Assembly (NCBI GenBank): GCA_022646745.1
Contig: CP060262.1
Span: 1,290,001 to 1,322,000, forward strand
Direction: 5' to 3'
Source of the DNA: Planctomycetales bacterium
GTDB taxonomy: Bacteria; 4484-113; JAFGCY01
Length of the DNA stretch: 32,000 bases
How positions within the stretch are numbered: the first letter of the stretch is position 1; each line of letters begins with the position of its first letter. A program made the position numbers and the translations under genes. The notes beneath the pieces are model-generated. The model had not been told where the DNA came from and did no database searches. It saw only the letters and a program-made list of their open reading frames with translations. This document shows positions 1 to 29,693 of the stretch, one piece after another.

Positions 1-2
1 CC

Positions 3-524
3 ACGCATGGCACCCTCAAGCGCCCCGGCGATGCCGACTGGAAGGAGGAGGAGCAGGTCGTCTTCAACTGGTTCGGTGACAAGTCCGACCCGATTGTGCT
101 GATCCAGTGCCGCGTTGACAGCTTCGAGGATGACCTCGAGCAGAGCGCCTACGACATCTTCTGCGACACCCTGCTTTCCAACTGGCTCAACTCAGATGAC
201 AACTACACCGTGCTTGATCCGCCGCTGCCGCGCAGTGAGGGAGAACCGCGCCGCACGCGCAGCATGCTCGGCTCGCATACCTGGAACCTGATCCAGATTG
301 ACGACCACTCCGATGCCAACGGCGGCAAGATCTACTACTCGATCTTCTGCACCTACAGCGGCAGGGACATCTACACCATCAGCTTCTACTACCTCAATCC
401 GATGACCAAGGAAGACACCCGCGTCAAGGATTTCGGCAAGCCGCTGCTGGAGAGCTTCCGCATCGCCGGTGAGGGCAGTGCCGTGGAGGAGGATGAGATG
501 GCGGCTGAGGACGGCGCTGCCTAG
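3..524 (+). CDS. hypothetical protein, N-terminus outside the window
   Basis: The frame is open from base 3 with no stop before the listed ORF at 96. It ends at TAG 522-524. There is no in-frame ATG near the left edge. No motif recognised. Confidence 0.55.
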   Translation, partial: THGTLKRPGDADWKEEEQVVFNWFGDKSDPIVLIQCRVDSFEDDLEQSAYDIFCDTLLSNWLNSDDNYTVLDPPLPRSEGEPRRTRSMLGSHTWNLIQIDDHSDANGGKIYYSIFCTYSGRDIYTISFYYLNPMTKEDTRVKDFGKPLLESFRIAGEGSAVEEDEMAAEDGAA

Positions 525-1153
525 CGCAGGATCGTTGCCAGCCTCATTTCAAAGTCCTCACGGGTCATCTCCGTCGTGACGTAGCCGACAACCTTGCCGT
601 CACGGTCAAGGAAGAAGGTGGATGGGAATGCGCTCAGGCCGAGCTTTTCCTTGACATCCACGCTGTGGTACATCGGGATCTCAAACCCCTTCTCCTTCCA
701 GAAGTCCTCGGCGGCCTTGCTGTCAACGGAGACCGCGATCATGTCGAACTCGGCCTTGCGCTCCTTGTAGACCTCATTCAGAGCGGGCAGTTCGTCCACG
801 CAGGGCGGGCACCAGTCACCCCAGAAGTTGACAACCAGCGGCCTGCCGTAGAAGGAGCTGATACCAAGCACCTCGCCGTCCGCACGGCGCACGCTGAATT
901 CCGGCATCGAACGCGCTGAGGAAGCACCGTCTGATTCCGATCCACCGCCGGGATTGGCCTGCTCGCCTGCTGCATTCTCTTTGGATGCGGCTGCATCCTG
1001 CTCGAGCTTGTTTTCTGTGACGTAAGCCTGGCCTTCCTGATCTTGAGCGAGGGTTTTTGCATTGCCGGCCTGTTCTTCGGCGGTCTTGTTGCAGGAAACG
1101 GCCAGCAGCAGTATCGCTGCCAGGGAAAGGATAATCAGCTGGATGGCTTTCAT
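521..1153 (-). CDS. TlpA/ResA-like thioredoxin-fold thiol:disulfide oxidoreductase lipoprotein, Cys form (WCPPC)
   Basis: Part of ORF 521..1234. Start moved to ATG 1151-1153, which gives the signal peptide and lipobox MKAIQLIILSLAAILLLAVSC-NK. Active site is NFWGDWCPPC and the cis-Pro loop is AFPSTFFL. Confidence 0.85.
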   Translation of the reverse strand: MKAIQLIILSLAAILLLAVSCNKTAEEQAGNAKTLAQDQEGQAYVTENKLEQDAAASKENAAGEQANPGGGSESDGASSARSMPEFSVRRADGEVLGISSFYGRPLVVNFWGDWCPPCVDELPALNEVYKERKAEFDMIAVSVDSKAAEDFWKEKGFEIPMYHSVDVKEKLGLSAFPSTFFLDRDGKVVGYVTTEMTREDFEMRLATILR

Positions 1154-1257
1154 GGTCAGTCGTCCACTCCGGGAATTACAGGTTTCAGATGATATCAGGC
1201 GCACGGTTCTGTGCCCCTGTCCTGATTGACGCAATCGAAGGCTGACTGTTCGTCGCT

Positions 1258-1854
1258 TCAGCGCGTGATTTCCGCCAGCTTGGCTTCGAACTCCTCAGCA
1301 CTGATCTCCCCGAGGTGCTCATCCACCACTTCACCCTCGCGGTTGATGAAGAAGGTATGCGGGATGCCATGCACGCCGTACATGTCACCCCAGTCGCCAT
1401 CCAGTCCCCACGGGAAGGTGTAGCCGCTCTGCTGCATCCAGGGAACCGGTTCCTTCGCGCGGTGCGAGGCCAGGGCCAGCAGCTCGAACTCGCCGCTGTG
1501 CTGCTTGTACATCTGCTCAAACACGGGAAACTCCCGCTTGCAGGGCTCTCACCACTCGCCCCAGAAGTTCAGCACCAGTGGCGTCCCGATGAAACGGGAT
1601 GCCTCCATCGGGCTGCCATCCGGGCTCGTGTATTTCGCTGTCAGCAGCGGGCTGCTCTCTGCCACTTCCGGCACCACTGGGCTGTCGCCGGGCGAGTCCT
1701 TGATAGGCTGGCCTGCAGCAGCTGCATCGTCCGCATTGCCTTGGACCGTGGAATGAACGCCATCCGCTGAGCCGGAAGAGTCCTGTGGCTGTTTATTGCA
1801 GGAAGCCAGAAGCAGCAATGCGATGCAAGGCAGCAATAGCTGGATGCGAATCAT
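1258..1854 (-). CDS. TlpA/ResA-like thioredoxin-fold lipoprotein, predicted selenoprotein (W-U-E-P-C; in-frame TGA at 1549-1551)
   Basis: ORFs 1549..1863 and 1258..1524 are in the same frame and separated only by the TGA. The read-through gives [23 protein letters not shown], which is colinear with the neighbouring WCPPC paralog. The C-terminal part carries the cis-Pro loop GIPHTFFI. Lipobox is LLLASC-NK. Start set at ATG 1852-1854, which has AGGAG 11 nt upstream. GTG at 1863 is an alternative start. Confidence 0.8.
1524..1536 (-). promoter_or_regulatory. putative bacterial SECIS hairpin (mRNA CGGGA-GUU-UCCCG)
   Basis: A 5-bp stem with a GUU loop begins 12 nt 3' of the UGA at 1549-1551. The stem may extend with G-U pairs and bulges. 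Confidence 0.6.
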
Positions 1855-1884
1855 GTAATGCACTGCTCCTGTCGCGATCCGGGC

Positions 1885-2418
1885 TTACTTGATGAGCTTG
1901 GCCAGCTTAGCCTCAAACTCATCGTGTCCCATCATGCCGACCTGCTGGTCAACCAGGTTGCCCTCAGCATCGATGAAGAAGGTATGCGGAATGCCGCTCA
2001 CACCGAACTTCGTGCCGCCATTGACATCGTGCACCATCGGGAAGCTGTAGCCGTTCTGGCTCCAGAAGCCTTCCGCATCCTGCGATGTCGGCGCGGCTAC
2101 TGCCAGCAGCTCGAACTGACCCTGGTGCGCTTCGTAACTTTTCTGGAAATCAGGTAACTCCTGAACGCAGTACCCTCACCAGTCGGCCCAGAAGTTCACG
2201 ACAAGTGGCTTGCCGAGGTACTGGGCCGTGGTCTGGGTCTGTCCACCCGTGGTCTTGAAGCTGAAATCCGTGGCCGGGTTGGGTTGCAGGGCATTGCCCC
2301 CGCTGCTGACCGTGCCACCACCACCGGAACCAGCCTGGTTGGTCTTGTTGCAGGAGAAGCCCAGCCCGGTCACCAGGACCAGGGCCAGCAGCAACATCCT
2401 TGCAGTGATCTGTTGCAT
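1885..2418 (-). CDS. TlpA/ResA-like thioredoxin-fold lipoprotein, predicted selenoprotein (W-U-G-Y-C; in-frame TGA at 2176-2178)
   Basis: ORF 2176..2418 ends in VVNFWADW followed by TGA. The same frame continues GYCVQELPDFQKSYEAHQGQFELLAVA...GIPHTFFIDAEGNLV...AKLIK to TAA at 1885-1887. Total length is 534 nt, which is in frame. Lipobox is LGFSC-NK. Confidence 0.8.
2150..2164 (-). promoter_or_regulatory. putative bacterial SECIS hairpin (mRNA UCAGG-AGUUA-CCUGA)
   Basis: A 5-bp stem with an AGUUA loop begins 11 nt 3' of the UGA at 2176-2178. Confidence 0.6.
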
Positions 2419-2527
2419 TGTTCACCTCGCGGCCACGTGCCATGCGGCCGCTTCATAGTGATATTACAGTATCGGGCTGGCGATCGCTGCCTCTGCCAGC
2501 CATTCTGTGGAGAATTCCGGGACGAGC

Positions 2528-2556
2528 TTGACTTTAAACTGACTGGTCAGTATAGT
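2528..2556 (+). promoter_or_regulatory. sigma-70-like promoter of tetR (TTGACT, 17 nt, TATAGT)
   Basis: The -35 element TTGACT is at 2528-2533 and the -10 element TATAGT is at 2551-2556, with a 17-nt spacer. The only plausible tetR start (GTG 2563) lies 7 nt after the -10 element, implying a leaderless or near-leaderless mRNA. Confidence 0.6.
2538..2551. promoter_or_regulatory. candidate TetR operator (ACTGAC-tg-GTCAGT)
   Basis: Perfect 6-bp inverted repeat located inside the promoter spacer, directly upstream of tetR. Confidence 0.55.
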
Positions 2557-2562
2557 TTTTCC

Positions 2563-3156
2563 GTGAGTGATTCACCAAAACGCGGGGCGCGCGAGAAGCT
2601 GATAGCTGCGGCGACGGAGTTGATCCGGCGTAACGGCTACAGCGCGACCAGCGTGGACAGCATCGTGGAAGCGGCCGGGGTCAGCAAGGGCAGCTTCTTC
2701 TACCACTTCGAGGGCAAGGAGGCACTGACCACCGCCTGCCTCGAGAACTGGGACCGGATGACCACCGGCATGCTGGCGGACGCGCCATTCATGCAGCTGG
2801 AGGACCCAGTGCAGCGCCTGCAGGGCTGCCTGGAATTCTTCATCATGGTGTTCTCCGATGCCCGCCAGTATCCCTCCTGCCTGGTCGGTACCACGGTGCA
2901 GGAGGTGGCGGACAGCAGCCCGACGCTGCGGGAGGCGGCCCGTACCTGCTTTTCGCATGCAGCCGGGCAGATCGGGGGACTGATCGCCGGGGCCGCGCAG
3001 GCGCGTGGCAGGGAACTGGACAGCATGGGCCTCGCGAACCTGTGGATGGCCACCCTGCAGGGTTCGCTCCTGATGGCCAAGGCCAGCGGGGATCCGGCCC
3101 GGATCCCGGCAAACCTGCGCAGCCAGCGGGACTACATCCTCGGGCTGCTTGGATAG
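2563..3156 (+). CDS. TetR/AcrR family transcriptional regulator
   Basis: N-terminal HTH region REKLIAAATELIRRNGYSATSVDSIVEAAGVSKGSFFYHFEGKEAL. Length is about 197 aa counted from GTG 2563. The longer ORF starting at 2284 overlaps the divergent gene and is rejected. Confidence 0.85.
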   Translation: MSDSPKRGAREKLIAAATELIRRNGYSATSVDSIVEAAGVSKGSFFYHFEGKEALTTACLENWDRMTTGMLADAPFMQLEDPVQRLQGCLEFFIMVFSDARQYPSCLVGTTVQEVADSSPTLREAARTCFSHAAGQIGGLIAGAAQARGRELDSMGLANLWMATLQGSLLMAKASGDPARIPANLRSQRDYILGLLG

Positions 3157-3269
3157 GCAGCAGGGAGCAGAAAGCAGGGAGCAGACTCCCTTGTTCGATA
3201 CATCAAGTCTGCCTGCTGCTTTCAGCCAGCTGCTCACTGATTAATCTGACAACACTTCGGGAGAACAGG

Positions 3270-3788
3270 ATGACGATAGCGGAAGCGATTCTGATGGAGA
3301 TCGAACAGGAGGCCATTGCCACGCGCAAGTGCCTCGAGCGCATCCCGGCCGACAGGCTGGACTGGAAGCCGGCGGAGAAGTCGATGAGCGCCGGCGAGCT
3401 GGGCATGCACATTGCCACTTCCCCGAGCGGGATCCTGTGGATGATGATGCAGGACGAAACCGGCTTCCCCGACCCGCCGGCCGAGAAGCCGGCGATCACG
3501 CATGCCGGCATCATGCAGGCCTTCGAGGACAGCCTTGCCAGGCAGCGTGAGACCTTCCCTGGCCTGACTGACGAGTTCATGACGGCGGAGTGGAAGTTCC
3601 TCAAGGATGGCAAGGTGCTGATGGCCCTGCCGCGTGTGGCCTTCGCTCGCATGGTGCTGCTCAGCCACATCTACCACCACCGTGGCCAGCTCAGCGTCTA
3701 CCTGCGCCAGCTGGATGTACCGGTGCCGAGCATCTACGGACCGAGCGCGGATGAGCTGCCGCCCTTCATGCAGGAAGCCGCAGGGTAG
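3270..3788 (+). CDS. DinB-family (DinB_2-like) four-helix-bundle protein
   Basis: Starts at ATG 3270 with GGGAGA upstream. Sequence MTIAEAILMEIEQEAIATRKCLERIP...LLSHIYHHRGQLSVYLRQL carries the typical DinB His motif. Confidence 0.75.
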   Translation: MTIAEAILMEIEQEAIATRKCLERIPADRLDWKPAEKSMSAGELGMHIATSPSGILWMMMQDETGFPDPPAEKPAITHAGIMQAFEDSLARQRETFPGLTDEFMTAEWKFLKDGKVLMALPRVAFARMVLLSHIYHHRGQLSVYLRQLDVPVPSIYGPSADELPPFMQEAAG

Positions 3789-3821
3789 GAGCTAGGACAT
3801 AGGACAAATTCAGAATTCAGG

Positions 3822-3999
3822 GTAGCGGTGGCGCCTTGCGCCAATTGAGAGAGACTGCCGAATCATTCAGATTCAGACATTCCCGGCAGGTGGTGCTTGT
3901 CATTGCATGCGCGATGAACCAATCAGGGATCGCTTATATGAAGACGGTCACAGAACTACGGGAGATGCCCTTTCAATTGGCGCGAGGCGCCACCGCTAC
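3822..3999. repeat. 26-bp inverted repeat enclosing 126 nt
   Basis: Left arm 3822-3847 (gtagcggtggcgccttgcgccaattg) matches right arm 3974-3999 (caattggcgcgaggcgccaccgctac) at 25 of 26 positions. Confidence 0.8.
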
Positions 4000-4016
4000 A
4001 AATATTCGCTCGCTGA

Positions 4017-4247
4017 TTGCGCGATGCATCTTCATGGGCAGCGATGCAACTTCAGCGCGACCCGGGTGCGCGGATGCGCAGCCGCAGCGCCAGACCGAAT
4101 TCTCTTACCCGCTCATGCAAGCATTCGCGGGTCTGCAAACCGGAGCGAAGCAAGCTTCACTCCTCTTGCCCGATGCATCTTCATGGGCAGCGATGCAACT
4201 TCAGCGCGACCCGGATGCGCGGATGCGCAGCCGCAGCGCCAGACCGA
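4017..4247 (+). repeat. two copies of an 82-bp direct repeat, period 149 bp
   Basis: Copy 1 is 4017-4098 and copy 2 is 4166-4247. They differ at 2 positions. The ORFs listed here (3836..4336, 3907..4317) merely translate the repeat. Confidence 0.85.
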
Positions 4248-4285
4248 TGAGTGCTTGCACGAAGCGGCAGCCAGAAAAGGAAGAA

Positions 4286-4315
4286 CCCCGCATTTCTGCG
4301 GGGTCTTTCTCTTTT
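4286..4315 (+). terminator. rho-independent terminator
   Basis: Hairpin ccccgca-tttc-tgcgggg followed by tctttctctttt. Confidence 0.7.
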
Positions 4316-4426
4316 AAAATCCGCTCTTCTTTTTGAGCACTGCGTTGTACAGAGATGATACAGGTTCTGACCATCCGTGTGGTTTGGCCTGCGTAAAATG
4401 ACAACCAATACAAAGTAAAAAATTAA

Positions 4427-4629
4427 GTGGTCAGTGGTCAGTGGTCAGTGGGAGTGGGCAGTGGGAGGTCAGGCCCATGGCCTGACAGGTATACGGTCCC
4501 ATGGACCGCATGAGTGCGCAGAAGGCAGAAGGCAGTGGGTAGAAGCAGAATGAGAAACAGAAGCAGAAGCAGCCGCCGGTTCATTGCTATGGATTCAGCC
4601 TGACCACTGACTACTGACTACTCACCACT
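4427..4629. repeat. tandem 9-mer (gtggtcagt x3) with an inverted degenerate partner array, enclosing two CCCATGG-centred hairpins and (gcagaag)n
   Basis: Left array starts at 4427 and extends to about 4465. The inverted partner array is at about 4599-4629 (cctgaccactgactactgactactcaccac). Hairpin 1 is at 4468-4486 and hairpin 2 at 4494-4508. Confidence 0.7.
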
Positions 4630-4662
4630 AAAAAAAATCCCCCACATTGCTGCGGGGGTTTT
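4630..4662 (-). terminator. strong rho-independent terminator (minus strand)
   Basis: The minus-strand RNA reads aaaaCCCCCgcagcaatgtGGGGGa followed by 8 U. On the plus strand only 4 U follow, so the element is weak in that direction. Confidence 0.75.
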
Positions 4663-5008
4663 GTACTTGTCAAACGCTCCGTATTCTCGGAGTTCCATAC
4701 CAGTTGCCTTTCCATCCAGGCTTCCCAATCAATCCTGCCCTGCTGTGTGGGCTTACAAGGTGAAGGCCTTTTTGGCCCCGCCGGTGTTCCCATATCCACC
4801 GGCACCTCGTTATGGCCCCGATGATACATCTTCTGCTTTGATCTGAGGTTCAGCCCCGGTGAAAAGATTGTCAACTGAGGATTAACTTCACTGCATTTCC
4901 GGGAATCCGCACATGGATATTCTGCACAGCGTGGGTTATCCACATGTTGTCAATGCTGTTAATGCCCTCTATGCTCCCTTTAAGCCAGTCTGCATTCCGA
5001 TACGTACG

Positions 5009-6490
5009 TCAGCCTGTCGCCAGGTCGGCGTCATCGTCCACCGGCCGGGCATTGCTGGATTCACTGCGCAGGAACAATCCGGTCAGCAGCCAGGGGATGC
5101 CGGCGGAGAGCAGCAGTGCGCCCATGATCATGTAGCCATCCATGCTGTAGCGGAAGGTGAGGATCTGCTCGAAGCCCGGGAAGGGCCCGAATGCAAAGGC
5201 CTGGGTGCTCAGCTCCAGCAGGTTCTGGTACTTCTGCGTAAGCACGAATGGCACGACGGAGCAGTAAAGCGCCAGGCAGGTCAGCAGCGCATACAGCACG
5301 GCGGGCAGGGGACCGCGCCGTCCCATGATGAACAGCATCGCGAACAGGCCGAGGATGCCCATGATCGGCACCGGAGCTGCGATCCAGGCGATCCCGCTGC
5401 CGGGATGCATCAGCGGGGCAGTGGCGAACAATGGCCCATAGGTTATCTCCTCGCCGATTATGACCCTTGGTTTTCCTCCAAGCGGGTAGGGACCGTATCC
5501 GTAGCTGTGCATGCTCAGGTTCCGGCGCGCGTTCAGGAATGGGCCAGGAGATTTATAGGTCCAGTGGGCGACGACAGGATTTTCAAGGGACCAGCCAGGC
5601 GGCAGTTTCCCGTTGGTTCGCACGTGGCTTGCCATCTTCTTTTCGATCAACTCCAGATCAGTAACCGCCCCGAGATAGATGCTCTCGCTGTCCTCGCGTA
5701 CGTCCTGCACCGGATAGGGTTGAGTGACGTCCACCCGGCGCATGGCAGAAGGTCCGGTCGTCCACAGGAATACAAGCACCAGTGACAGCATGGCAGGAAT
5801 GCCAGCCCTGCGCCAGCGCGGCATAAGGAATCCGGCGATGATCCCGGCAAGCATCACTCCACCAAGCATCACGGTTATCCAGGCAAAAACGCCATCCAGC
5901 CGGCCGGACACACTGCTGTAGCCATATTCAGTCAGCAGCGGCTCCAGCAGTATCAGTCCTCCGAACAGGATCAGGGTGTGGATCAGTTTGTACTGCAGCA
6001 GCCTGGCAATCAACACACCCAGGCCGAGCCGCCAGGCATCCAGCACGCCACGGGCCAGTACGTAGAAGAACATGCCCCGGCTGATTGCCAGCAGCAGCCA
6101 GCAGCTGATTGCCAGCGGGCTGAACTGGTTTGGCAATACCCCGGGATTGTACATTGTCCGGCTGTACTCCCGGGAAATCCCCTGCAGGTAACCGGACAGG
6201 GCATCGCCAAGCAGGGCCAGTGCGAACCAGAACATCAACCAGCCCAGTTCGCGCCATTCCTCGCGGTTTGGCTTGCGGTGCAGGGTGGCAACCACCTGGT
6301 CGGCGATATGCGCCGCCGACAGTTTGCGCCGCACTTTAGGTTCCGCCAGTTTCGCCTCGGCGGCCCTGGCTGCATCGCTGCCCTCGTCAGCCTGCAGGCA
6401 GTCCAGGTGGTCCGACAGTTCGCTGGCAATCTCCGAGTGCCGCTGGGGTGACAGCCCCCAGTCATCAGGATGTCCGAAGCGTGTATCCAT
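5009..6490 (-). CDS. multi-pass membrane protein with a PadR-associated N-terminal helical domain (paralog B)
   Basis: 493 aa. The first 51 residues are identical to the upstream paralog, followed by many hydrophobic segments. The ATG lies 9 nt after the stop of the preceding gene. Confidence 0.75.
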   Translation of the reverse strand: MDTRFGHPDDWGLSPQRHSEIASELSDHLDCLQADEGSDAARAAEAKLAEPKVRRKLSAAHIADQVVATLHRKPNREEWRELGWLMFWFALALLGDALSGYLQGISREYSRTMYNPGVLPNQFSPLAISCWLLLAISRGMFFYVLARGVLDAWRLGLGVLIARLLQYKLIHTLILFGGLILLEPLLTEYGYSSVSGRLDGVFAWITVMLGGVMLAGIIAGFLMPRWRRAGIPAMLSLVLVFLWTTGPSAMRRVDVTQPYPVQDVREDSESIYLGAVTDLELIEKKMASHVRTNGKLPPGWSLENPVVAHWTYKSPGPFLNARRNLSMHSYGYGPYPLGGKPRVIIGEEITYGPLFATAPLMHPGSGIAWIAAPVPIMGILGLFAMLFIMGRRGPLPAVLYALLTCLALYCSVVPFVLTQKYQNLLELSTQAFAFGPFPGFEQILTFRYSMDGYMIMGALLLSAGIPWLLTGLFLRSESSNARPVDDDADLATG

Positions 6491-6499
6491 GTCCGTCCC

Positions 6500-7954
6500 C
6501 TATGTGGTCTCCACCAGATTTGCATCTGAATCACTCTTGCCCGCATCGACCATGAAGGCTGACATCAGCATGAACAATGACAATGGCACAAGCATGAAAA
6601 CGATGATCGCGTAATTATTGTCGGAATAGCTCCCGGTGTTCAATGCGACGGTTAACTGCGGGAATGGATGGATCAGAACTGAGCTGACTGCATACTGAAA
6701 AGGGGTGCCGAATTCCGTCCAACTCGTGTTGCCGCTCCAAGGTGAAAAGGGAGCATCCGGAAACCGCAGGAAAATTACCAGGCAGGTTATCAGCGAAAAT
6801 GCTGCCCCGGTTGGTGCAAGCATCTTGTGCAAACCAGCCTTGACTGATCTGGAAGCATCTTTCGTGCCATGCAGTATCACGCTTGCAAATGTAAGCAGCA
6901 GCATGATGATCGTTGTCAGGACAGTGAAGTTACCGGTCACATCAATATATGGCTCGGTCAGCCAGGTCTTCCTGATTTCCATATCCGGACGCAGGTGGGC
7001 CTTGTCAATGCCAAAGGATTCCCGCTTTTTTGAATACGCATTGATGAGACTATGCCCAACCTGAACATCCGAAGCGATGCCATCGAGGATAGCCCAGCCC
7101 TCTTCAAGGTTGACCCGCTGGGGGTCCATCCCATTGTCAAGAATCTCCTGCAGCACCTTCTGGCTCAGCTTGGACTTGCTCTGGAAATGAACAACAGCTC
7201 CAGGCCCCGTGAAGTAAGCAGCCAGCGCAAACATTGCCAGTCCGGAGGATACCAACCAGAGGCGCGACCTATTCATCAAGAGAAGAAGTATTGCAACGAT
7301 GCCTGCCGAAATGGCAAAAAACTCGGATGTCAGTGGAAGCTGATGTGCAAGGTTTGTCCTCAGCTGACTCGTGTTCTCAGCTGTCAGGAAATTGCGGAAC
7401 ATCACTGCCTGCACAATGGAAATCCAGAGGGAAAGCTGGATGGCTCTGGCTGCCATAACTCCGATGCCAATCCTGCTGGATCTCTTAAGTATGGCAACCA
7501 GCTGGCAAATGACGCCGATTCTGCCCGCCTGGCACAAAAGCCATGCAAGGAGAATTGCCGCGAACACAATTGGACTGGACTCTTCAGAGGAGAAGTACCT
7601 GCCGAATCTTTCTCCTGGAATATACGGAAACAAAGCTGCGGTTCTTTCGAGATACTGCCATGCCGCTGTGCCTCCTGCCAGCAGCACGATCCAGAAGCCC
7701 AGCCACATCCATTCGCGCAATTCAGCTGGAGTAGGCCAGCGCAGCAGTGTCGTTGTCAGCTGGTCGGCCACATGGGCGGAAGAGATCTTCTTTCGTACCT
7801 GCGGTTCCGCCAGCTTCGCCTCGGCGGCTCTGGCAGCGTCGCTGCCCTCATCCGCCTGCAGGCAGTCCAGGTGGTCTGACAGTTCGCTGGCAATCTCGGA
7901 ATGCCGCTGCGGCGACAGCCCCCAGTCATCAGGATGTCCGAAGCGTGTATCCAC
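6500..7954 (-). CDS. multi-pass membrane protein with a PadR-associated N-terminal helical domain (paralog A)
   Basis: 484 aa. GTG start lies 3 nt after the padR stop. N-terminus reads MDTRFGHPDDWGLSPQRHSEIASELSDHLDCLQADEGSDAARAAEAKLAEP. Confidence 0.75.
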   Translation of the reverse strand: MDTRFGHPDDWGLSPQRHSEIASELSDHLDCLQADEGSDAARAAEAKLAEPQVRKKISSAHVADQLTTTLLRWPTPAELREWMWLGFWIVLLAGGTAAWQYLERTAALFPYIPGERFGRYFSSEESSPIVFAAILLAWLLCQAGRIGVICQLVAILKRSSRIGIGVMAARAIQLSLWISIVQAVMFRNFLTAENTSQLRTNLAHQLPLTSEFFAISAGIVAILLLLMNRSRLWLVSSGLAMFALAAYFTGPGAVVHFQSKSKLSQKVLQEILDNGMDPQRVNLEEGWAILDGIASDVQVGHSLINAYSKKRESFGIDKAHLRPDMEIRKTWLTEPYIDVTGNFTVLTTIIMLLLTFASVILHGTKDASRSVKAGLHKMLAPTGAAFSLITCLVIFLRFPDAPFSPWSGNTSWTEFGTPFQYAVSSVLIHPFPQLTVALNTGSYSDNNYAIIVFMLVPLSLFMLMSAFMVDAGKSDSDANLVETT

Positions 7955-8547: not shown

Positions 8548-10200
8548 TTACGGTCCCGGGAAGGCCTTGGCCACCACGTAGATGTGGTTGCTTTCCACTC
8601 CATCGCCGTTCTTGGCGTAGACATAGCCGCTTGTGAGCGTCGGGTGGAAACGTGCGGTACCCGCCGGCGTCCAGCTGTTGATGATGTAGTTCGGCGGCGG
8701 GATGTCGGCATGCCAGGTCAGGGTGTTCACGTCAACTGCCGTGCCGCTGCCGTCCGGCAGGGTGTTGGCAACGAAACTGAACTCGATGGAGCCATCCGAG
8801 TTGAAGCTCACATTGCGCACCTTGAAGGCCGTCTCCGGTGTCAGGCCGTCACCCTCCACAGTGGCCCAGTCCGTATCGGCCGGGTCCGGTATGATGTACA
8901 GCAGTTCCACCACCTCAGGCACGTAGATGAAGTGGAGGCTGTTCTGGGTGTCAACGCCGGCCGCCACTCCGTCCAGTGAAAACTGCGTGTCCGTGAACGC
9001 AGCGTTGAACTGCACCTCGCCCGTCGCCTGGTCAATGCTCTGGGTGGCCCCGGCATCACTGGCGCGGATCTCCACCCCGGCGTCTCCGGTGACGTCGATG
9101 CCGTCGTCGGTGATCCTGAACGTGAAGCTGTTGCCGATTATCGTGTCCGTCAGCACATAGGGGTCAGCCAGCGTGCCGCTGCCCTGCGAGGGCTTGTCAA
9201 GGAAGTCCAGCACGATGAAGGGCGGGTTGTCAATGACCTCAGGCACGAACACCGGCTCCGGCGAAAAGCCGAGGTTGCCACTACCGTCATCAAGCCGCGG
9301 GTAGTAGCCGTTGCCGGGCAGCGGGTTCCCCGGGGAATAGCTGAAGCTGAGGCGGTCCTTGCTCTTGTCGCCGCTTGCGCTGGAGATTGCGAGGTTGTCA
9401 ATGTCCGAATGCACGGCGCTGACGATCTCGAACACGTGGTAGCCGCCGCTGCCGGCATTGCCGAAGTTGACGCCGATCGGGGTGATGTCCGACAGGTTGA
9501 TCACACCGTTGCCATCGCCGTCCACCACGCTCTCGACCTTCCCGATCGGGAAGCCGCCGGTCTGGCTCTTGTTGAAATGCTGCGCCAGCGGGGTCAGGTC
9601 GGCGACGTTCACCTCGCCGTTCTGGTCGTAGTCCGCCGGGTTGTTGTACAGCCAGCTCAGCAGCTTGGGGTCATTGTCCCAGGTCAGCTGCAGCGGCGTT
9701 GCCTTGGCGCTGTCATTCACCTTGGAAGCGATGCGCGCCTGCGGCTCCAGCCGGAAGCGCAGCAGCGCCAGCTCGCCGGATCCACTGAAGCCGTTCTGCT
9801 CATCGGGATGCACCAGCACCTGGCCGGCCTGCAGCTGTCCCATTGCGGTGGGCTGCATCAATGACAGCGTGTCATCTTCGTTGCCAAAGGCAGTCGTGGG
9901 AGCTGCATCAAGCGGATTCAGCTGTGCACCGTCGAAGTCCAGCTCGTAGTACAGCGCGGTCAGGTGATTGGCCCGGTTGGCGCGCACACTGACAATCAGC
10001 TCATCGCCCTGCCGGCGGCTGCTGATCCCGAAGGAATCCGCGGAGGCCGCGCCGATGAAGCTTTCATCCATCACGCGCAGGCTGAGGCTGGCCGTGATGT
10101 CACGGTTCCCGTCCGTGCTGAACTGCTTCATCGTGTTGCCGCAGGCGCAGGCGAACAGCGCGAGTAGCAGGGACAGGCCGGTGGCGAAGCGAATCCACAT
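8548..10200 (-). CDS. secreted protein with a cohesin-like module and dockerin-like Ca-binding repeats
   Basis: Start set at ATG 10198-10200, giving the signal peptide MWIRFATGLSLLLALFACAC. The cohesin-like region reads LTALYYELDFDGAQLNPLD...GELALLRFRLE. The dockerin-like repeats are DYDQNGEVNVADLTPL and DGDGNGVINLSDITPI. Confidence 0.7.
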   Translation of the reverse strand: MWIRFATGLSLLLALFACACGNTMKQFSTDGNRDITASLSLRVMDESFIGAASADSFGISSRRQGDELIVSVRANRANHLTALYYELDFDGAQLNPLDAAPTTAFGNEDDTLSLMQPTAMGQLQAGQVLVHPDEQNGFSGSGELALLRFRLEPQARIASKVNDSAKATPLQLTWDNDPKLLSWLYNNPADYDQNGEVNVADLTPLAQHFNKSQTGGFPIGKVESVVDGDGNGVINLSDITPIGVNFGNAGSGGYHVFEIVSAVHSDIDNLAISSASGDKSKDRLSFSYSPGNPLPGNGYYPRLDDGSGNLGFSPEPVFVPEVIDNPPFIVLDFLDKPSQGSGTLADPYVLTDTIIGNSFTFRITDDGIDVTGDAGVEIRASDAGATQSIDQATGEVQFNAAFTDTQFSLDGVAAGVDTQNSLHFIYVPEVVELLYIIPDPADTDWATVEGDGLTPETAFKVRNVSFNSDGSIEFSFVANTLPDGSGTAVDVNTLTWHADIPPPNYIINSWTPAGTARFHPTLTSGYVYAKNGDGVESNHIYVVAKAFPGP

Positions 10201-10374
10201 GTGGACCCCCATTGGCGATATGCCGTACATATAGATGTTATGGCAGCCGGGGTGAAAGGTCAATGCACAGTGGGCGGAGGAAGCAGAGAGCTGCAAGCAG
10301 ACACGGCCTGCGAATATCATGGTCTGCTTTCAGCTATCTGATTTCTGCATGCCCTGCATGGCATAATCACTGCC

Positions 10375-11808
10375 GTGGGCGCAAAGCTTAGCCAGGAACA
10401 GCAACTGGAGGAACTCACGGCGCAGGAAGCCAAACTGCGCGCTTCCGGCAGTCCGCCGGATCCAGAGAAGCGCATGATGCGCGCTGGCATCCTGGTCAGG
10501 CTCGGCCGCTACGATGAGGCACACAACGCGCTCGATTCGGCCGCTGCCGCCTGTACGGAGCTGGGCATCCCTGAGCTGGCCCGCATCATGAACATCCGCG
10601 CTGATGTGCTGCGCCTGCAGGGGCTGTACTCGGAAGCCCTGGCAAGCATCCAGGCTGCGGAACAGCGCTCGCTGGCAGATGAGCACTTCTTCCCCGGTAT
10701 CTACAACACCTGGGCGAACATCCTTGCTGACCTGGGCCGTCCCGGACAGGCCCTGAAGCTGATCCAGCGCGCCGGGGACTATTTTGCGGGCGAGGGCATT
10801 GCCTTCCCGCCACCGTTGGCCACGAATCGTGGCAACATGCTCAAGTCCCTGGGCCGCTACCATGAAGCGCTTGAGGCATATGACCATGCCCGCCGCCTGT
10901 ACGAGGAACAGGACAAGCCTGTGTTCCCAGGCATCTATTCCATGATCGGCCTGACCCTGATCCTGCAGGAGAAGTACGCAGAGGCCCTGTTGCCGCTGGA
11001 TGAATCGGAACGCTTCTGCCATGAGCAGGGCTGGGCACCGTGGTTCGGCATCGACATGTACCGTGGTGTGTGTTTCGGCAAGCTGAAGCGGTACGGGGAT
11101 GCCATGGCGGCTTATTCCCGTGCCCAGGCGATCCTTGATGAACAGCGGGTGATCGGGGAGTGGGAACTTAATTTCAGCCGGGCAATCACGATGTACGAGG
11201 CCGGACATGCAAGCGAGGCCATAGCGGAGGTTTACGAGGCCATCGCCCTCTGCGCCAAACTGGGCGTGGACCAGCCGGCGTTCATGATGGAGACCCTGCA
11301 GGACTGGTTGTCACCGCAGCCGGAGAAGCTGGCAGCGCAGCAGCAGGCCAGCCAGCCCGCTCCAATAGAGCCGGTGCCCGACAGCGAGAAGCGCTACGAT
11401 GCATTCCTGAGCTACCGCCGCGATCCCGGCCTGCCCTATTCAATGCTGATCAAGACGCACCTGGACATGAATGGGCGCAGCATCTTCCGCGACCAGGAGG
11501 ACCTGCATAAGGGCCAGTTCCACGAGGACATCATCGATGCCATCCGCCACAGCCGGCACATGATCGTGCTGATGACGCCGGGTTTCTTCGAGCGCTGCAG
11601 CAATCCCGAAGACGTGCTTCGCAATGAGATCTCCACCGCGCTGCGCTGCGGCACGCACATCATCCCGCTGATGATGGAGGGGTTCAGCTGGCCGCAGCCA
11701 GCTGATTTGCCGGCGGATATCCGCGACATCTGCAAGGTGAATGCGATGTCCTATTCCAGCGAGTTCTTCAGCGCCTTCATTGACAAACTGCTGCGCTGGA
11801 TGGGCTGA
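10375..11808 (+). CDS. TPR-repeat protein with a C-terminal TIR domain
   Basis: About 300 aa of TPR-like repeats (e.g. LGRYDEAHNALDSA, LGRYHEALEAYDHA, LKRYGDAMAAYSRA), then a Q/P-rich linker. The TIR region reads YDAFLSYRRDPG...HMIVLMTPGFFERCSNPEDVLRNEISTAL. The GTG start at 10375 is uncertain. Confidence 0.8.
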   Translation: MGAKLSQEQQLEELTAQEAKLRASGSPPDPEKRMMRAGILVRLGRYDEAHNALDSAAAACTELGIPELARIMNIRADVLRLQGLYSEALASIQAAEQRSLADEHFFPGIYNTWANILADLGRPGQALKLIQRAGDYFAGEGIAFPPPLATNRGNMLKSLGRYHEALEAYDHARRLYEEQDKPVFPGIYSMIGLTLILQEKYAEALLPLDESERFCHEQGWAPWFGIDMYRGVCFGKLKRYGDAMAAYSRAQAILDEQRVIGEWELNFSRAITMYEAGHASEAIAEVYEAIALCAKLGVDQPAFMMETLQDWLSPQPEKLAAQQQASQPAPIEPVPDSEKRYDAFLSYRRDPGLPYSMLIKTHLDMNGRSIFRDQEDLHKGQFHEDIIDAIRHSRHMIVLMTPGFFERCSNPEDVLRNEISTALRCGTHIIPLMMEGFSWPQPADLPADIRDICKVNAMSYSSEFFSAFIDKLLRWMG

Positions 11809-11858: not shown

Positions 11859-13124
11859 CTACTTATTCCCGACCGTTCCGTAACCCACCGTCTGCCAGAC
11901 GCCGTCAGCAAACTTCATGATTACGCGCTGGCCGTTCAGGGTGGTGAACTTCAGCCAGGGCTCGCCGTTCATGGTGCTGATGCTGACCTCGAAGTCGAAG
12001 TCCACATCCGCGCTGAGCGCTTCGCTCCACCAGCTGCTGCCATCCTGGTAGGCGCCCATGATGGTGTCGCCCTCGCGGAATACCAGCGTCAGGCCGTGCT
12101 GACTGTGGAAGGTGGCGAAGCAGCCGAAGTCACGCTCGGCGGCGGCGCTGACCGTCTGGCCCGGGCCATTCTCCGGGCCGACACTCAGGCGGCCCTCCTC
12201 ATTCAGCGCGATATGCGTCACGCTGCCATCGCTCAGCTCAAGCCGGGTCTCGGTGCGGAAGCGGGTGGCATAGCTTTCCACCGGTGCGGCCGGTGCGGCC
12301 TGCTCCTGTGGCGGGGCCGGCTGCTGCTGGGCCTCACGCGGTGGCTGGGGCAGTGAGGCGCCACTGGCCCCGCTGTTGCCATAGTAGTAATAGTTGTTCG
12401 TCACACTGTTGTCATTCACCACCGTGTCCGGCGTGTCGTCATAGCGGCGGTCATTCTGCCGGTCACGGAAGTAGCCCAGCTCGGGGTAGTCCGGTGCGGT
12501 GTAAAGCTGGCCGGTCACCTGCTGCTGGTAAGGGTTCTGGTAACCGAGCCCCATCACCGGATAGCCGTACTGGATCACCAGCGGGTAGCCGCCGGAGTAG
12601 TAGCGGTTGTTGTAGTACGGCGAGGAATAGCCGCAGCCGCAGCCGTCGTAGCAGCCGCCGCGATGCCCGCCGTAGCTGACCTGCGGCAGGCCGAGGTACT
12701 GGCTGTCCGGCAGCACGCGCTCGCTGCCACTTTCCAGCCCGCGCGGGATGAACACGCGGTAGCCACCGCGGTCATTCGGGTGGTCTGATGTCTCGCCGTA
12801 GCCGTAGCTGAAGTCGTTGTAGTAGTCGTTGTGGCGGTTGCGGTGCCGGCCGTTGTACAGCCTGTTGCCATAGTCGGCTCGCAGGTCGCCGTCGCGATAG
12901 CTCAGGGACAGGCCGGGCTGGTAACCGTAGTTGTAGCCATAGTTGTAGTAGTAGGGCGTGCCATACAGGCCGTAGCTGTAGACCTGGCCATTGACGTAGC
13001 CGCGCTCTCCGGAGTCGAAGCGCAGGCGCAGGGAGAAGTCGTCATCCGCATGCGCCGCCGTCGCCAGCAGCGAGCCTGCCAGCAGCGCGCCTGAGCACAT
13101 CATCAGTAAGTTCCTTCCAACCAT
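11859..13124 (-). CDS. secreted Tyr/Gly/Asn-rich low-complexity protein with a globular C-terminal domain
   Basis: Start set at ATG 13122-13124, giving the signal peptide MVGRNLLMMCSGALLAGSLLATAAHA. Repeat-like stretches include YYYNYGYNYGYQPG and NNYYYYGN. A PQ-rich linker precedes an ordinary-composition C-terminus. Confidence 0.65.
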   Translation of the reverse strand: MVGRNLLMMCSGALLAGSLLATAAHADDDFSLRLRFDSGERGYVNGQVYSYGLYGTPYYYNYGYNYGYQPGLSLSYRDGDLRADYGNRLYNGRHRNRHNDYYNDFSYGYGETSDHPNDRGGYRVFIPRGLESGSERVLPDSQYLGLPQVSYGGHRGGCYDGCGCGYSSPYYNNRYYSGGYPLVIQYGYPVMGLGYQNPYQQQVTGQLYTAPDYPELGYFRDRQNDRRYDDTPDTVVNDNSVTNNYYYYGNSGASGASLPQPPREAQQQPAPPQEQAAPAAPVESYATRFRTETRLELSDGSVTHIALNEEGRLSVGPENGPGQTVSAAAERDFGCFATFHSQHGLTLVFREGDTIMGAYQDGSSWWSEALSADVDFDFEVSISTMNGEPWLKFTTLNGQRVIMKFADGVWQTVGYGTVGNK

Positions 13125-13145
13125 GTCCTGCCTCCGGGCACAGCC

Positions 13146-15356
13146 ATGCTGCGCCATCGCACATACATATATAGACTACCAGAATGGACACCCGGTTCAG
13201 CTGCCGATGTAACGGGGCCAGCTCTGGTATCATCCCCCCCTGTGGAGCGAAGCTTCGACATCATCGTGGTGGGCGGCGGCCATGCGGGCTGCGAGGCCGT
13301 GCATGCGGCGGCCCGGCTGGGCCTGAACTGCTGCCTGGTCACGATGCGCCTCGACGGCATCGGGCATATGCCCTGCAATCCCAGCATCGGCGGGCCGGCC
13401 AAGGGGCATTTGACCCGCGAGATTGATGCGCTCGGTGGCCTGCAGGGCAGCGTGACGGATGCGACATATGTGAATGTGCGCATGCTGAACACCGGCAAGG
13501 GTGCTTCGGTGCAGGCCCTGCGCGCCCAGAGCGACCGCATCGGCTACAGCATGGAAATGCGCCGCCGTCTCGAGCTGACCCCAAACATCACGCTGGTGGA
13601 AGGTGAGGTCACGCAGATCCTCACGCAGCCCGATCCAGCTGGCGGCATTCCGGCTGCCCGCGGCGTAATGCTCGCTGACGGGCGTGAACTGGCTGCCACT
13701 CGGGTCGTGATCTGCCCCGGCACATTCTCCCGGGCGGTCTGCTTCGTCGGTGACCGCAGGCATGAAGCCGGGCGTTGGGGCGAGAATTCCGCGATGGCAC
13801 TCGGGCATGACCTGGAGCAGCATGGCATACGCACGCAAAGGCTCAAGACCGGCACCAGCCCGCGCATCGACAAGCACACGATTGACTACACCGCGCTTAC
13901 GCCGCAGCTCAGCGAATGGCGCACGAATGCCTTCTCGAACTACGAGCCGAGCATGCTGCCGAGCTGGTTCCTGCCCTGCTGGCTGACGCGCACGACGGAC
14001 GAGACCTGCCGCCTGATCCTCGAGAAGCAGCACACTTCCGCGCTGTACAGCGGGGCCGTGACCGGCACCGGGCCGCGCTACTGCCCGAGCATCGAGGACA
14101 AGGTGGTGCGCTTCCCGGACGTGATGCGGCACCCGATCTTCATCGAGCCGGACGGCCTGAACGTGGACATCCTCTACCTGCAGGGTCTGAGCACATCTTT
14201 ACCGCTGGAGGTGCAGCGCGAGTTCCTCGCCACCATCCCGGGCCTTGAGCATGCGAGGATCCGCCGGCCGGGATATGCGGTGGAATATGACGCGGTCAAC
14301 CCGCTGGACCTGACGCAGCACCTGGAGAGCCGCCAGATCAGCGGGCTGTACTGCGCCGGGCAGTTCAATGGCACGAGTGGCTATGAGGAGGCCGCCGCAC
14401 AGGGCCTGGGTGCCGGTGCGAATGCTGCGCTGTCACTGCTGGGCCGCGATCCGCTGCCGCTCACCCGCGAGAACAGCTACATCGGTGTGCTGCTTGACGA
14501 CCTGACCACCCGTGGCACGGATGAGCCCTACCGCATGCTGACCGCACGCTGTGAGCATCGCCTGCTGCTGCGGCATGACAATGCCTTCATGCGGCTCGGG
14601 CCGATTGCACGGGACGCGGGGTTGCTGAGCGAGACACAGGTCCGCGAGCTGGAGGCGATGCGCACGAAGGTGTATGCGCTGGATGCCCGGCTGGCGGAGG
14701 GTCGCATCCCGGCTGCCGACCAGGCGGCGCTCGGGCTGGAGTTCAGTCGCGAAGAGACCCGCCGGGCCCGCGAGCTGATGCGGATGGGCAGGAGCATCGA
14801 CTCATTGCTGGACATCCTCGAAGCGCAGGATGCTGGCAACGATGCTTCGGGGTTGCGTCCGGAAACGCCATCCGGGCCTGAGCGCTGGCCGACGGCCTTT
14901 GACCGTCCGCTCGGCAGTTCACTGGATGCGCCAGCGGTCGGGGTGTCAGGCTACATGGACAGTGACATCGAGCTTGGCAGCGTGATTGACAACCCGCATT
15001 CCGGCAAGCTCGGCCGTTCTGACGATCCACCACCGGCGGAACTAATGGAGCTGCACCGCTGGCTGATGGCGCGGGAGCATGTGGCTGTCGAGATTGTCTA
15101 CGAGGGCTACCTCGAGCGGGCTCGGGCCGAGATCGAGCGTGTGCGCGGGCACAGCGAGCTGCCCATTCCGGCCGGGTTCGAATTCCACTCCGTCGAGGGC
15201 CTGATGATCAGCACGCGCCAGTTGCTCACACGGGCACGTCCGGCCACACTGGGACAGGCGGGACGGGTGAGCGGGGTCACGCCGGCTGACATGGCGAATC
15301 TGCTGGTTGCCCTGCGGCGATACCTGGCAGCTAGTGAACTGATAAGGCAGGGATAA
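13146..15356 (+). CDS. mnmG: tRNA uridine 5-carboxymethylaminomethyl modification enzyme MnmG (GidA)
   Basis: FDIIVVGGGHAGCEAVHAAARLG...PCNPSIGGPAKGHLTREIDALGG...GPRYCPSIEDKV...IVYEGYLER. The true start is probably GTG 13242, since ATG 13146 overlaps the divergent gene. Confidence 0.9.
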   Translation: MLRHRTYIYRLPEWTPGSAADVTGPALVSSPPVERSFDIIVVGGGHAGCEAVHAAARLGLNCCLVTMRLDGIGHMPCNPSIGGPAKGHLTREIDALGGLQGSVTDATYVNVRMLNTGKGASVQALRAQSDRIGYSMEMRRRLELTPNITLVEGEVTQILTQPDPAGGIPAARGVMLADGRELAATRVVICPGTFSRAVCFVGDRRHEAGRWGENSAMALGHDLEQHGIRTQRLKTGTSPRIDKHTIDYTALTPQLSEWRTNAFSNYEPSMLPSWFLPCWLTRTTDETCRLILEKQHTSALYSGAVTGTGPRYCPSIEDKVVRFPDVMRHPIFIEPDGLNVDILYLQGLSTSLPLEVQREFLATIPGLEHARIRRPGYAVEYDAVNPLDLTQHLESRQISGLYCAGQFNGTSGYEEAAAQGLGAGANAALSLLGRDPLPLTRENSYIGVLLDDLTTRGTDEPYRMLTARCEHRLLLRHDNAFMRLGPIARDAGLLSETQVRELEAMRTKVYALDARLAEGRIPAADQAALGLEFSREETRRARELMRMGRSIDSLLDILEAQDAGNDASGLRPETPSGPERWPTAFDRPLGSSLDAPAVGVSGYMDSDIELGSVIDNPHSGKLGRSDDPPPAELMELHRWLMAREHVAVEIVYEGYLERARAEIERVRGHSELPIPAGFEFHSVEGLMISTRQLLTRARPATLGQAGRVSGVTPADMANLLVALRRYLAASELIRQG

Positions 15357-18381: not shown

Positions 18382-18942
18382 ATGCGCAGACAGTTGATCG
18401 GAAGCTTCCTGCTGCTGGTGACGGTCCTGCTCGTGTTCTCCGCCTGCAACAAGCAGCAGGGCGAGAACGCGGACAGCGGCAATGGCCAGCAGGTGGCGGA
18501 AGCACCCGCTCCCGTGCGGGAAACCACCGGTGGCAATGTACCGAGCGGCCAGCCGGATCTTACCTATGCCACCTTTGCCGGCGGCAGCGGCAAGGTCAGC
18601 GCCCTGGCCGGCAAGCCCGCCGTGGTAAACATGTGGGCAGTCTGGTGAACTTCCTGTATTCAGGAGATTCCTGAATTCCTCGAATTGCGTGAAGAAACCG
18701 GCGACAAGTTCAACTGGCTGTTCGTGGCAACGGATGACATCGGTGACCCGAAGCAGCTTGTCACTGACAAGGGCTGGCCAGCCGAGGTGTTTGCGATGAG
18801 CGAGGGGGGCGACATCAAGGACTTCCACGACGGCGCTAACCCGACCACCTACTTCTATGATTCCAGTGGGAAGCAGGTTGACAAGATGGTTGGCTCATTG
18901 ACCCTCGCAGAACTGAGGGAGAAGGTCGCTGGCCTGAACTAG
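18382..18942 (+). CDS. TlpA/ResA-like thioredoxin-fold lipoprotein, predicted selenoprotein (W-U-T-S-C; in-frame TGA at 18646-18648)
   Basis: ORF 18373..18648 ends in VVNMWAVW followed by TGA. The same frame continues TSCIQEIPEFLELREETGDKF...NPTTYFYDSSGKQV to TAG at 18940-18942, and ORF 18685..18942 is in that frame. Lipobox is VFSAC-NK. ATG 18382 has GAGG 8 nt upstream. Confidence 0.8.
18658..18676 (+). promoter_or_regulatory. putative bacterial SECIS hairpin (AUUCAGG-AGAUU-CCUGAAU)
   Basis: A perfect 7-bp stem with a 5-nt loop begins 9 nt after the UGA. Confidence 0.65.
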
Positions 18943-25616: not shown

Positions 25617-25683
25617 GCCTGACAGCGGCCTGGATTTTGCCTGACGGTAGAATGGAGCATTGAATCCCCTCCCGGAGGAACAG

Positions 25684-29587: not shown

Positions 29588-29693
29588 GATCTCCGCATTC
29601 CAGCTGGCAAAGGGCCTCGGCACTGAAGCATTGTAGCTGAGCCGCTTGTCCGGCTGCGACGGATGATTCACATGCAATGCGGGATTGCGTTAC

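Follow-up and report, generated by a model that had tools for sequence, protein, structure and literature searches.

Three TlpA/ResA-like lipoprotein genes of a Planctomycetales bacterium with in-frame UGA codons and predicted SECIS hairpins

The 32-kb stretch of contig CP060262.1 analysed here (assembly GCA_022646745.1; below, the window) carries four genes for thioredoxin-fold lipoproteins resembling TlpA and ResA, which we call A, B, C and D, and in three of them (A, B and D) an in-frame UGA codon occupies the position of the first cysteine (Cys) of the CxxC active site. Judged from their sequences, A, B and D are almost certainly genuine selenoprotein genes of a known family. We regard it as very probable that their products are exported UxxC lipoproteins of the TlpA/ResA type, decoded through a selenocysteine insertion sequence (SECIS), a hairpin that follows the UGA. 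Genes with UGA at this position are called Sec-type, for selenocysteine (Sec), and those with a Cys codon Cys-type; L-numbers denote the loci compared with the window.

Results

The four genes and their in-frame UGA codons

Genes A, B and C follow one another on the minus strand, with gaps of 30 nt (A/B) and 104 nt (B/C), and gene D sits downstream of ThiF and BON genes on the plus strand:

2418..1885, minus strand: gene A, Sec-type TlpA/ResA-like lipoprotein gene of 177 codons (translation; Pfam AhpC-TSA, 9.8e-21; lipobox)
2178..2176, minus strand: in-frame UGA of gene A, predicted Sec codon 81, in the alignment column of the first CxxC Cys of gene C and other Cys homologues
1854..1258, minus strand: gene B, Sec-type TlpA-like lipoprotein gene of 198 codons, W-U-E-P-C (translation; Pfam)
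1551..1549, minus strand: in-frame UGA of gene B, predicted Sec codon 102
1153..521, minus strand: gene C, Cys-type paralogue of 210 amino acids (aa), NFWGDW-UGC-PPC-VDELP (W-C-P-P-C), frame uninterrupted
18382-18942, plus strand: gene D, distant Sec-type paralogue of 186 codons, NMWAVW-UGA-TSC-IQEIP (W-U-T-S-C)
18646-18648, plus strand: in-frame UGA of gene D, predicted Sec codon 89

The active site of A reads NFWADW-UGA-GYC-VQELP (W-U-G-Y-C), and the protein of gene C is identical to NCBI MCB1220799.1 / UNM09447.1. An earlier note on this DNA had described three co-oriented paralogs, the first two with UGA and the last with UGC in a W-[C/U]-x-x-C site, each with a lipobox followed by Asn-Lys, and this is indeed the arrangement that we find. 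All four proteins, D included, match the PROSITE-style lipobox [LIVMFWSTAG]2-[LIVMFYSTAGCQ]-[AGS]-C and have a lysine or arginine near the N-terminus; the lipobox Cys, for which residues 15-35 were allowed, is residue 23, 19, 21 and 22 in the four genes and is followed by N-K and a low-complexity linker. Pfam AhpC-TSA and Redoxin are above the gathering score in all four, PF00578 scoring 74.4 bits in A, 53.0 in B and 36.2 in D (cut-off 26). Past the UGA, the frame stays open and TlpA-like for another 96-97 codons in A, B and D, and a scan of the window for in-frame TGAs between long open frames gave these three genes as the only credible candidates. Identical TGAs are present in independent assemblies from several studies (L001-L007, L009), and the recurrence of the same locus and TGAs across independent projects shows that they are not sequencing errors.

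Public gene callers break A into fragments of 80 and 50 aa and B into fragments of 101 and 88 aa, which is what one would see if these were pseudogenes or truly split genes, with the TGAs acting as real stops and the downstream halves decaying or separately expressed. We find this explanation hardly credible. For A in at least six lineages and for D in three, the TGA has stayed at one codon position and the protein after it is conserved in frame; A, B and D carry no other disruption. Moreover, the same layout is found in 49 Sec-type homologues (among the matches listed in the one-genome-per-species survey described below), and the C-terminal halves have neither a catalytic motif nor a signal peptide, some of them not even a start codon.

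A short hairpin after each UGA

The RNA downstream of each of the three UGA codons can fold into a small hairpin:

2164..2150, minus strand: hairpin of gene A, UCAGG-AGUUA-CCUGA, 5 bp, loop starting 16 nt after the UGA
1537..1523, minus strand: hairpin of gene B, GCGGGA-GUU-UCCCGU, 6 bp including a terminal G-U, loop starting 17 nt after the UGA
18658-18676, plus strand: hairpin of gene D, AUUCAGGA-GAU-UCCUGAAU, 8 bp, loop starting 17 nt after the UGA

The hairpins form 11-14 nt past the UGA and share one register: counting the U of UGA as 1, the pairs are 15-19/25-29 in A, 15-20/24-29 in B and 13-20/24-31 in D. The core pairs G19-C25 and G18-C26 fall on the Glu (GAG) and Pro (CCN) codons of the E-x-P motif, which is conserved throughout the family, and the other stem pairs fall on wobble and flanking positions. 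The corresponding codons of gene C (GUG GAC GAA CUG CCC) form no comparable hairpin, with a hairpin energy of 0; the structures in the Sec copies, and their lack in the Cys copy, are thus as first described.

The bacterial SECIS consensus (Zhang & Gladyshev 2005, as given in PMC13188914) has an upper stem of 4-16 bp and a loop of 3-9 nt with G as its first or second nucleotide, the apical loop being 16-37 nt away from the UGA. The hairpins of A, B and D agree with it in their position within the coding region, loop, stem, loop G and spacing (16, 17 and 17 nt, respectively, within a family range of 14-22 nt). Across the family, 48 of 51 hairpins have this loop G, against the 53% expected (p=1.8e-10).

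The hairpin accompanies the UGA across the family

To survey the family, a one-genome-per-species collection was scanned with the pattern AAYTTYTGG-N6-TGGTGA-N6-TGY, which matched at least 120 loci. Among the matches listed, 49 are TlpA-like frames that remain open beyond the TGA. Their sources are Acidobacteriota, Planctomycetota, Gemmatimonadota, Anaerolineae, Desulfobacterales, Nitrospinaceae, Poribacteria, Verrucomicrobiales, Clostridia, Bacteroidota and others, and nearly all of these Sec-type homologues have a hairpin at the same place, with a stem of differing sequence. A metagenome scan with an alignment of the C-terminal halves gave one distant locus.

The hairpin was scored as the best perfect hairpin with its loop centre 19-28 nt from the U of UGA, with a cut-off of -4 kcal/mol. 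When the survey genes (among the matches listed) were pooled with the syntenic relatives described below, a hairpin at or below the cut-off was present in 47 of the 55 distinct genes of the Sec type and in none of the 20 of the Cys type (Fisher p=3.9e-12; Mann-Whitney p=3e-9). As for the Cys controls, a scan of viral contigs with a matched Cys pattern returned mostly chance matches and about five usable Cys genes, the remainder being taken from neighbouring paralogues and syntenic loci.

The hairpins were also compared with what the proteins themselves impose. With the protein fixed and synonymous codons redrawn from the codon usage of the window, the recodings that equalled or beat the observed hairpin amounted to 0.4% for A (p=0.004), 1.6% for B (p=0.016) and 0.4% for D (p=0.004), and to 100% for C (p=1). 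Whole-segment minimum free energy had been tried as the statistic for this null and was rejected (for D, -8.4 observed against a null mean of -11.9): it is misleading in this GC-rich codon context, and the register-specific hairpin statistic was therefore used instead.

Covariation was evaluated on an ungapped, codon-anchored alignment of 18 sequences with a hairpin in the register of the window. Compensatory changes affect six of the eight stem pairs, and the covariation score is 0.49, against 0.14 for shuffled alignments (0/500 reach the observed value) and 0.06-0.15 for slid controls; a second hairpin register, lying one codon further downstream in proteins with C-x-R-E-R-S, covaries too. 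The changes can be followed between orthologous loci, where the earlier note had proposed to look for them. Where gene A of the window has U-A at pair 15-29, its orthologues have C-G (four lineages) or G-C (L257), and the amino acid encoded there shifts between Asp, Gly and Ala in step with the pair; in the D orthologue of L262 the pair A17-U27 has become G17-C27. Finally, an independent covariance model, trained on 15 sequences none of which comes from the window, gives three strong matches and no more in the 32 kb, namely the three UGA sites: A with 42.3 bits (E=1.3e-10), B with 35.3 (E=1.3e-8) and D with 31.3 (E=1.7e-7). Below these, the next match scores 13.5 bits and the Cys copy C 5.2 bits.

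It could be argued that the hairpin simply results from the codons needed for (Q/R)-E-x-P and does nothing as RNA, and the two core pairs do derive from Glu and Pro codons that are conserved family-wide. We nevertheless give this explanation next to no credence, as the 20 Cys-type genes compared, with the same E-x-P motif, are all devoid of the hairpin, as the hairpin is rare in synonymous recodings of A, B and D, and as the wobble and flanking pairs change in a compensatory fashion. The earlier proposal that the structure tracks the UGA rather than the protein motif is thus borne out by the Cys controls, the recoding null, the covariation and the independent covariance model. Nor is the hairpin equally present in Cys orthologues: UGA-bearing orthologues of A keep it, and the Cys-type genes compared are without it.

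Two further observations concern the family at large. In three Planctomycetota loci (L013, L044 and L103), Sec-type TlpA-like genes have no hairpin at the usual position; L013 and L103 share GACCU-CGUG(C/A)-AGGUC, placed roughly at +28 to +42 relative to the UGA, of which L044 shows, by inspection, a weaker version. From its sequence and location, this element looks like a third SECIS register, inside the 16-37 nt rule. In L030, a metagenome-assembled genome of Verrucomicrobiales, two Sec-type TlpA-like genes occur in one 8-kb locus, so that multi-copy Sec paralogues in the TlpA-like family are not confined to the lineage of the window.

UGA as a stop codon, and the search for the selenocysteine machinery

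UGA is not globally reassigned in this window, as had been concluded before. Indeed, TGA is the stop of the TPR-TIR gene, of both 946-aa PKD genes, of ThiF and of gene B itself, and the ThiF protein that ends in TGA has the same length as its orthologues. Among the examples previously offered for TGA as an ordinary stop, the TIR gene and both 946-aa genes are correct, but no padR gene was found: the regulator in question belongs to the TetR family and ends in TAG.

Several points weigh against the decoding of A, B and D by a SECIS element. The stem of gene A, with just 5 bp and a loop of 5 nt, is close to the lower limit of the model, and Rfam gave no SECIS-type match either at the gathering threshold or at a permissive E-value. 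Folded singly, the 62-nt segments have insignificant z-scores (-1.3 to +0.8), which are uninformative for hairpins so short; as the stems are too small for this measure, the case depends on the comparison with other genes. The covariation sets were each picked for a hairpin in the register under study, which inflates the percentage paired, a selection bias that is absent from the Sec/Cys contrast and from the recoding null. As to the machinery, the tRNA scan came up empty for the window and gave no tRNA-Sec for 57 related or family loci, the Pfam annotation of the window contains no selA, selB or selD gene, and a SelD/GTPase motif scan of all loci compared returned nothing. Since the sel genes were found neither in the window nor in the compared loci, Sec decoding by this lineage is a strong inference and not a demonstration.

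Some of these points would also suit a read-through of the UGA without selenocysteine, in which the canonical Sec machinery is absent and the hairpin promotes near-cognate decoding (as Cys or Trp) or another kind of recoding; the failure to find the machinery in the window or the compared loci and the shortness of the hairpins (5-8 bp) both go in this direction. Such a read-through is very unlikely in our view. The hairpin geometry and the loop G fit the SelB-type model of the bacterial SECIS (PMC13188914), the same element is common to Sec-type homologues across many phyla, and the UGA stands exactly at the redox Cys, where Sec is a known substitute (PMC1794560). Taken more generally, a hairpin-directed recoding that dispenses with the canonical SelA/SelB/tRNA-Sec/SelD, or that inserts something other than Sec, appears highly improbable.

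Orthologous loci and the age of the array

Five related lineages have syntenic loci: HKST-UBA03 'UBP7' (L068, L252), GCA_041395205.1 (L255), GCA_024645305.1 (L257), a JGI metagenome contig (L258), and L259/L260. Orthologues of A are found in all five (L068, L255, L257, L258, L259, L260), and every one of them is Sec-type, with U-G-Y/P-C and the hairpin; that of L068 has 70% protein identity downstream of the TGA. The C orthologues of the same five lineages are all Cys-type and none has a hairpin. D orthologues in L261 and L262 are Sec-type and keep the TGA. The more distant L263, whose ThiF is 57% identical, encodes at 5488-6147 a full-length Cys protein, W-C-G-P-C, after ThiF-BON in the position of D; its gene has just a 3-bp hairpin remnant in the canonical register.

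The composition of the array is not constant. Three relatives have an extra Cys paralogue between TetR and gene A, which we call X (W-C-P-P-C, no hairpin) and which is not in the window:

L068 731-1219, L255 4765-5253 and L258 3704-4282: paralogue X

Conversely, gene B is absent from all five related syntenic loci compared and has no homologue at E<=1e-12 in a collection of 5.8 billion proteins. The absence of X from the window and of B from the relatives shows that the array composition turns over between lineages. Gene B could be a recently born selenoprotein gene, with a minimal SECIS assembled from the E-x-P codons of the family. In L257 (positions 1-4227, GCA_024645305.1), prophage-like genes (Mu-type portal, terminase, S24 repressor) lie directly upstream of the A orthologue and occupy the position that TetR and DinB have in the other lineages.

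The earlier note had also seen in the array recent duplicates caught in Cys-to-Sec interconversion, and here the comparison leads elsewhere. Identity over the domain is 42% between A and B, 38% between A and C, 33% between B and C and 24-30% between D and the others, hence just 24-42% among the four genes; A and X share 55-64%. As A is Sec-type and C Cys-type in all five related syntenic loci, the Sec/Cys difference is older than the divergence of these lineages. From these sequences, the paralogues of the array are old and each is fixed as Sec or as Cys; they are no snapshot of recent interconversion. The phylogeny that had been proposed to polarise Cys versus Sec gave no polarity: in the neighbour-joining tree, the clade of C orthologues has a bootstrap support of 100% and that of A orthologues 64%, and the support for the position of X, 17-58%, is too low to fix it.

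Neighbouring genes and other features of the window

Two genes lie next to the array, on the side of gene A:

2563-3156, plus strand: TetR-family regulator gene, divergent from gene A (Pfam TetR_N, 3.3e-16; stop TAG)
3267-3788: DinB-family gene (Pfam)

The TetR gene accompanies the array in four of the five related loci (synteny seen in L001, L068, L255, L258 and L259), and the TetR protein may regulate the array, which is a conjecture. A sigma-70-like promoter, TTGACT-17-TATAGT, lies upstream of TetR at 2528-2556, and a palindrome, ACTGAC-TG-GTCAGT (about 2538-2551), overlaps it within the 144 bp that separate the divergent genes A and TetR. This palindrome is likely the operator of TetR, as predicted from its position.

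Beyond DinB, about 1.2 kb (3789-5008) is without a credible open reading frame (ORF), and no gene is called there in the relatives. This segment has 82-nt direct repeats that are 98% identical (4017-4098 and 4166-4247), inverted arms of 30 nt (3822-3851 and 3970-3999), heptamer-repeat arms (4426-4448 and 4600-4622), and two terminator-like hairpins, at about 4285-4316 (with a plus-strand U-tract) and about 4629-4662. It is 72-80% identical in nucleotides to L255 and L068 over nearly its full length, and with the more distant L259 it shares 86% identity over 4298-4424. Rfam gave no match in 3789-5008; from its conservation and repeats, the segment may hold conserved small RNAs or a regulatory region.

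Further along are tandem ORFs of 493 and 484 aa (5009-6490 and 6500-7954) with no Pfam match, to which a 492/493-aa pair corresponds in L255. A 477-aa protein (10375-11808) has N-terminal TPR repeats and a C-terminal TIR_2 domain, an architecture frequent among defence or signalling proteins. Two tandem 946-aa paralogues (22776-25616 and 25660-28500) have PKD domains, the second also a weak BNR-like match. The large ORFs at 8548-10320, 11859-13157, 20853-22706, 28514-29677 and 30408-31985 have no Pfam match.

Discussion

The ORF structure, the family membership, the presence of the hairpins, their covariation, their association with UGA and the conservation in orthologues are direct observations on these loci. 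They lead us to the following model of how A, B and D would be expressed. The attacking residue of their active sites would be selenocysteine (UxxC). During translation, the small hairpin formed 11-14 nt after the UGA would act as a bacterial SECIS: its loop of 3-5 nt, with G first or second and starting 16-17 nt after the codon, is predicted to recruit SelB-GTP-Sec-tRNA(Sec), and the UGA would then be read as Sec and not as a stop. The stem draws on the x-E-x-P codons (GAG...CCN) together with wobble and adjacent positions whose bases are chosen so as to pair; in gene C, the Cys paralogue, E-L-P is kept in codons that do not pair. The proteins would presumably be exported, lipid-anchored, and work as extracytoplasmic disulfide reductases. 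The SelB-dependent insertion of Sec, the export with lipidation and the redox role are thus the predicted part of the model.

Because gene callers split these genes at the UGA, three selenoproteins are probably missing from the proteome of this lineage and of its relatives, and the locus implies that the lineage decodes Sec. The locus is also a clean natural control, in which adjacent Sec and Cys paralogues share the same E-x-P motif and the hairpin is present only with the UGA, and it illustrates how conserved codons can accommodate a minimal SECIS. Knowledge of selenoprotein families and of SECIS function is unchanged by it.

The Prx-like thiol:disulfide oxidoreductases (PF00578, UxxC/UxxU; Kryukov & Gladyshev 2004) have been a catalogued selenoprotein family since 2004, the 'thiol:disulfide interchange protein' is likewise a catalogued bacterial selenoprotein family, and a trend for Sec to replace Cys among thiol oxidoreductases has been described (PMC13188914, PMC1794560). 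Like the Prx-like family, the genes studied here have an AhpC/TSA-Redoxin thioredoxin fold, a predicted Sec at the first Cys of CxxC, abundant Cys homologues, and a putative SECIS hairpin in the coding region directly after the UGA. The PF00578/PF08534 domain and the UxxC motif (UGYC, UEPC, UTSC) that characterise this family (type member, WP_010940744.1) are found in A, B and D. Unlike that family, they belong to an uncultured lineage ('Planctomycetales bacterium' or 'UBP7'), all of them encode lipoproteins, and three Sec paralogues and one Cys paralogue stand within one 32-kb window. The extracytoplasmic location proposed in the earlier note is plausible from the signals, and yet it is the norm for the family, as a lipobox or a hydrophobic signal/anchor is present at the N-terminus in 39 of the 43 Sec-type relatives that could be assessed. 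Selenoproteins that are exported, and lipoprotein ones, have been recorded before (bioRxiv 10.1101/2022.07.06.499078).

By sequence, the best matches are the NCBIfam models ResA, StoA, DsbE and TlpA and the PDB entries 3kcm, 1st9 and 3erw, thioredoxin-family proteins that include ResA and StoA. The NCBIfam scores (73-83 bits for ResA against a cut-off of 170, 43-63 for TlpA against 230) are far under the curated cut-offs, so that the genes of the window are orthologous to none of the named members and are relatives at the family level only. They share the W-C-x-x-C...E-x-P motif and the membrane-anchored or lipoprotein mode of export with the Cys-type TlpA, ResA, StoA and CcmG (DsbE), from which they differ by the predicted Sec in three of the four. 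A TlpA/ResA-like fold with Sec is also known from NF041054, the ResA-like WAxxUGC selenoprotein, or UGC-containing TlpA-family selenoprotein (PMC13188914). However, the motif there is U-G-C in a protein of about 354 residues, whereas here it is U-x-x-C, and the genes of the window score only 21-40 bits with this model (cut-off 300).

As regards the RNA element, the closest reference is the SECIS of E. coli fdhF and fdnG. As in these, the stem-loop is immediately 3' of the UGA and inside the ORF, with an apical-loop G (often GU) that is the expected contact of SelB. The hairpins of A, B and D are nevertheless far shorter (5-8 bp, loops of 3-5 nt), have no evident bulged U, are unrelated in sequence, and, unlike those of fdhF and fdnG, are embedded in the conserved E-x-P codons.

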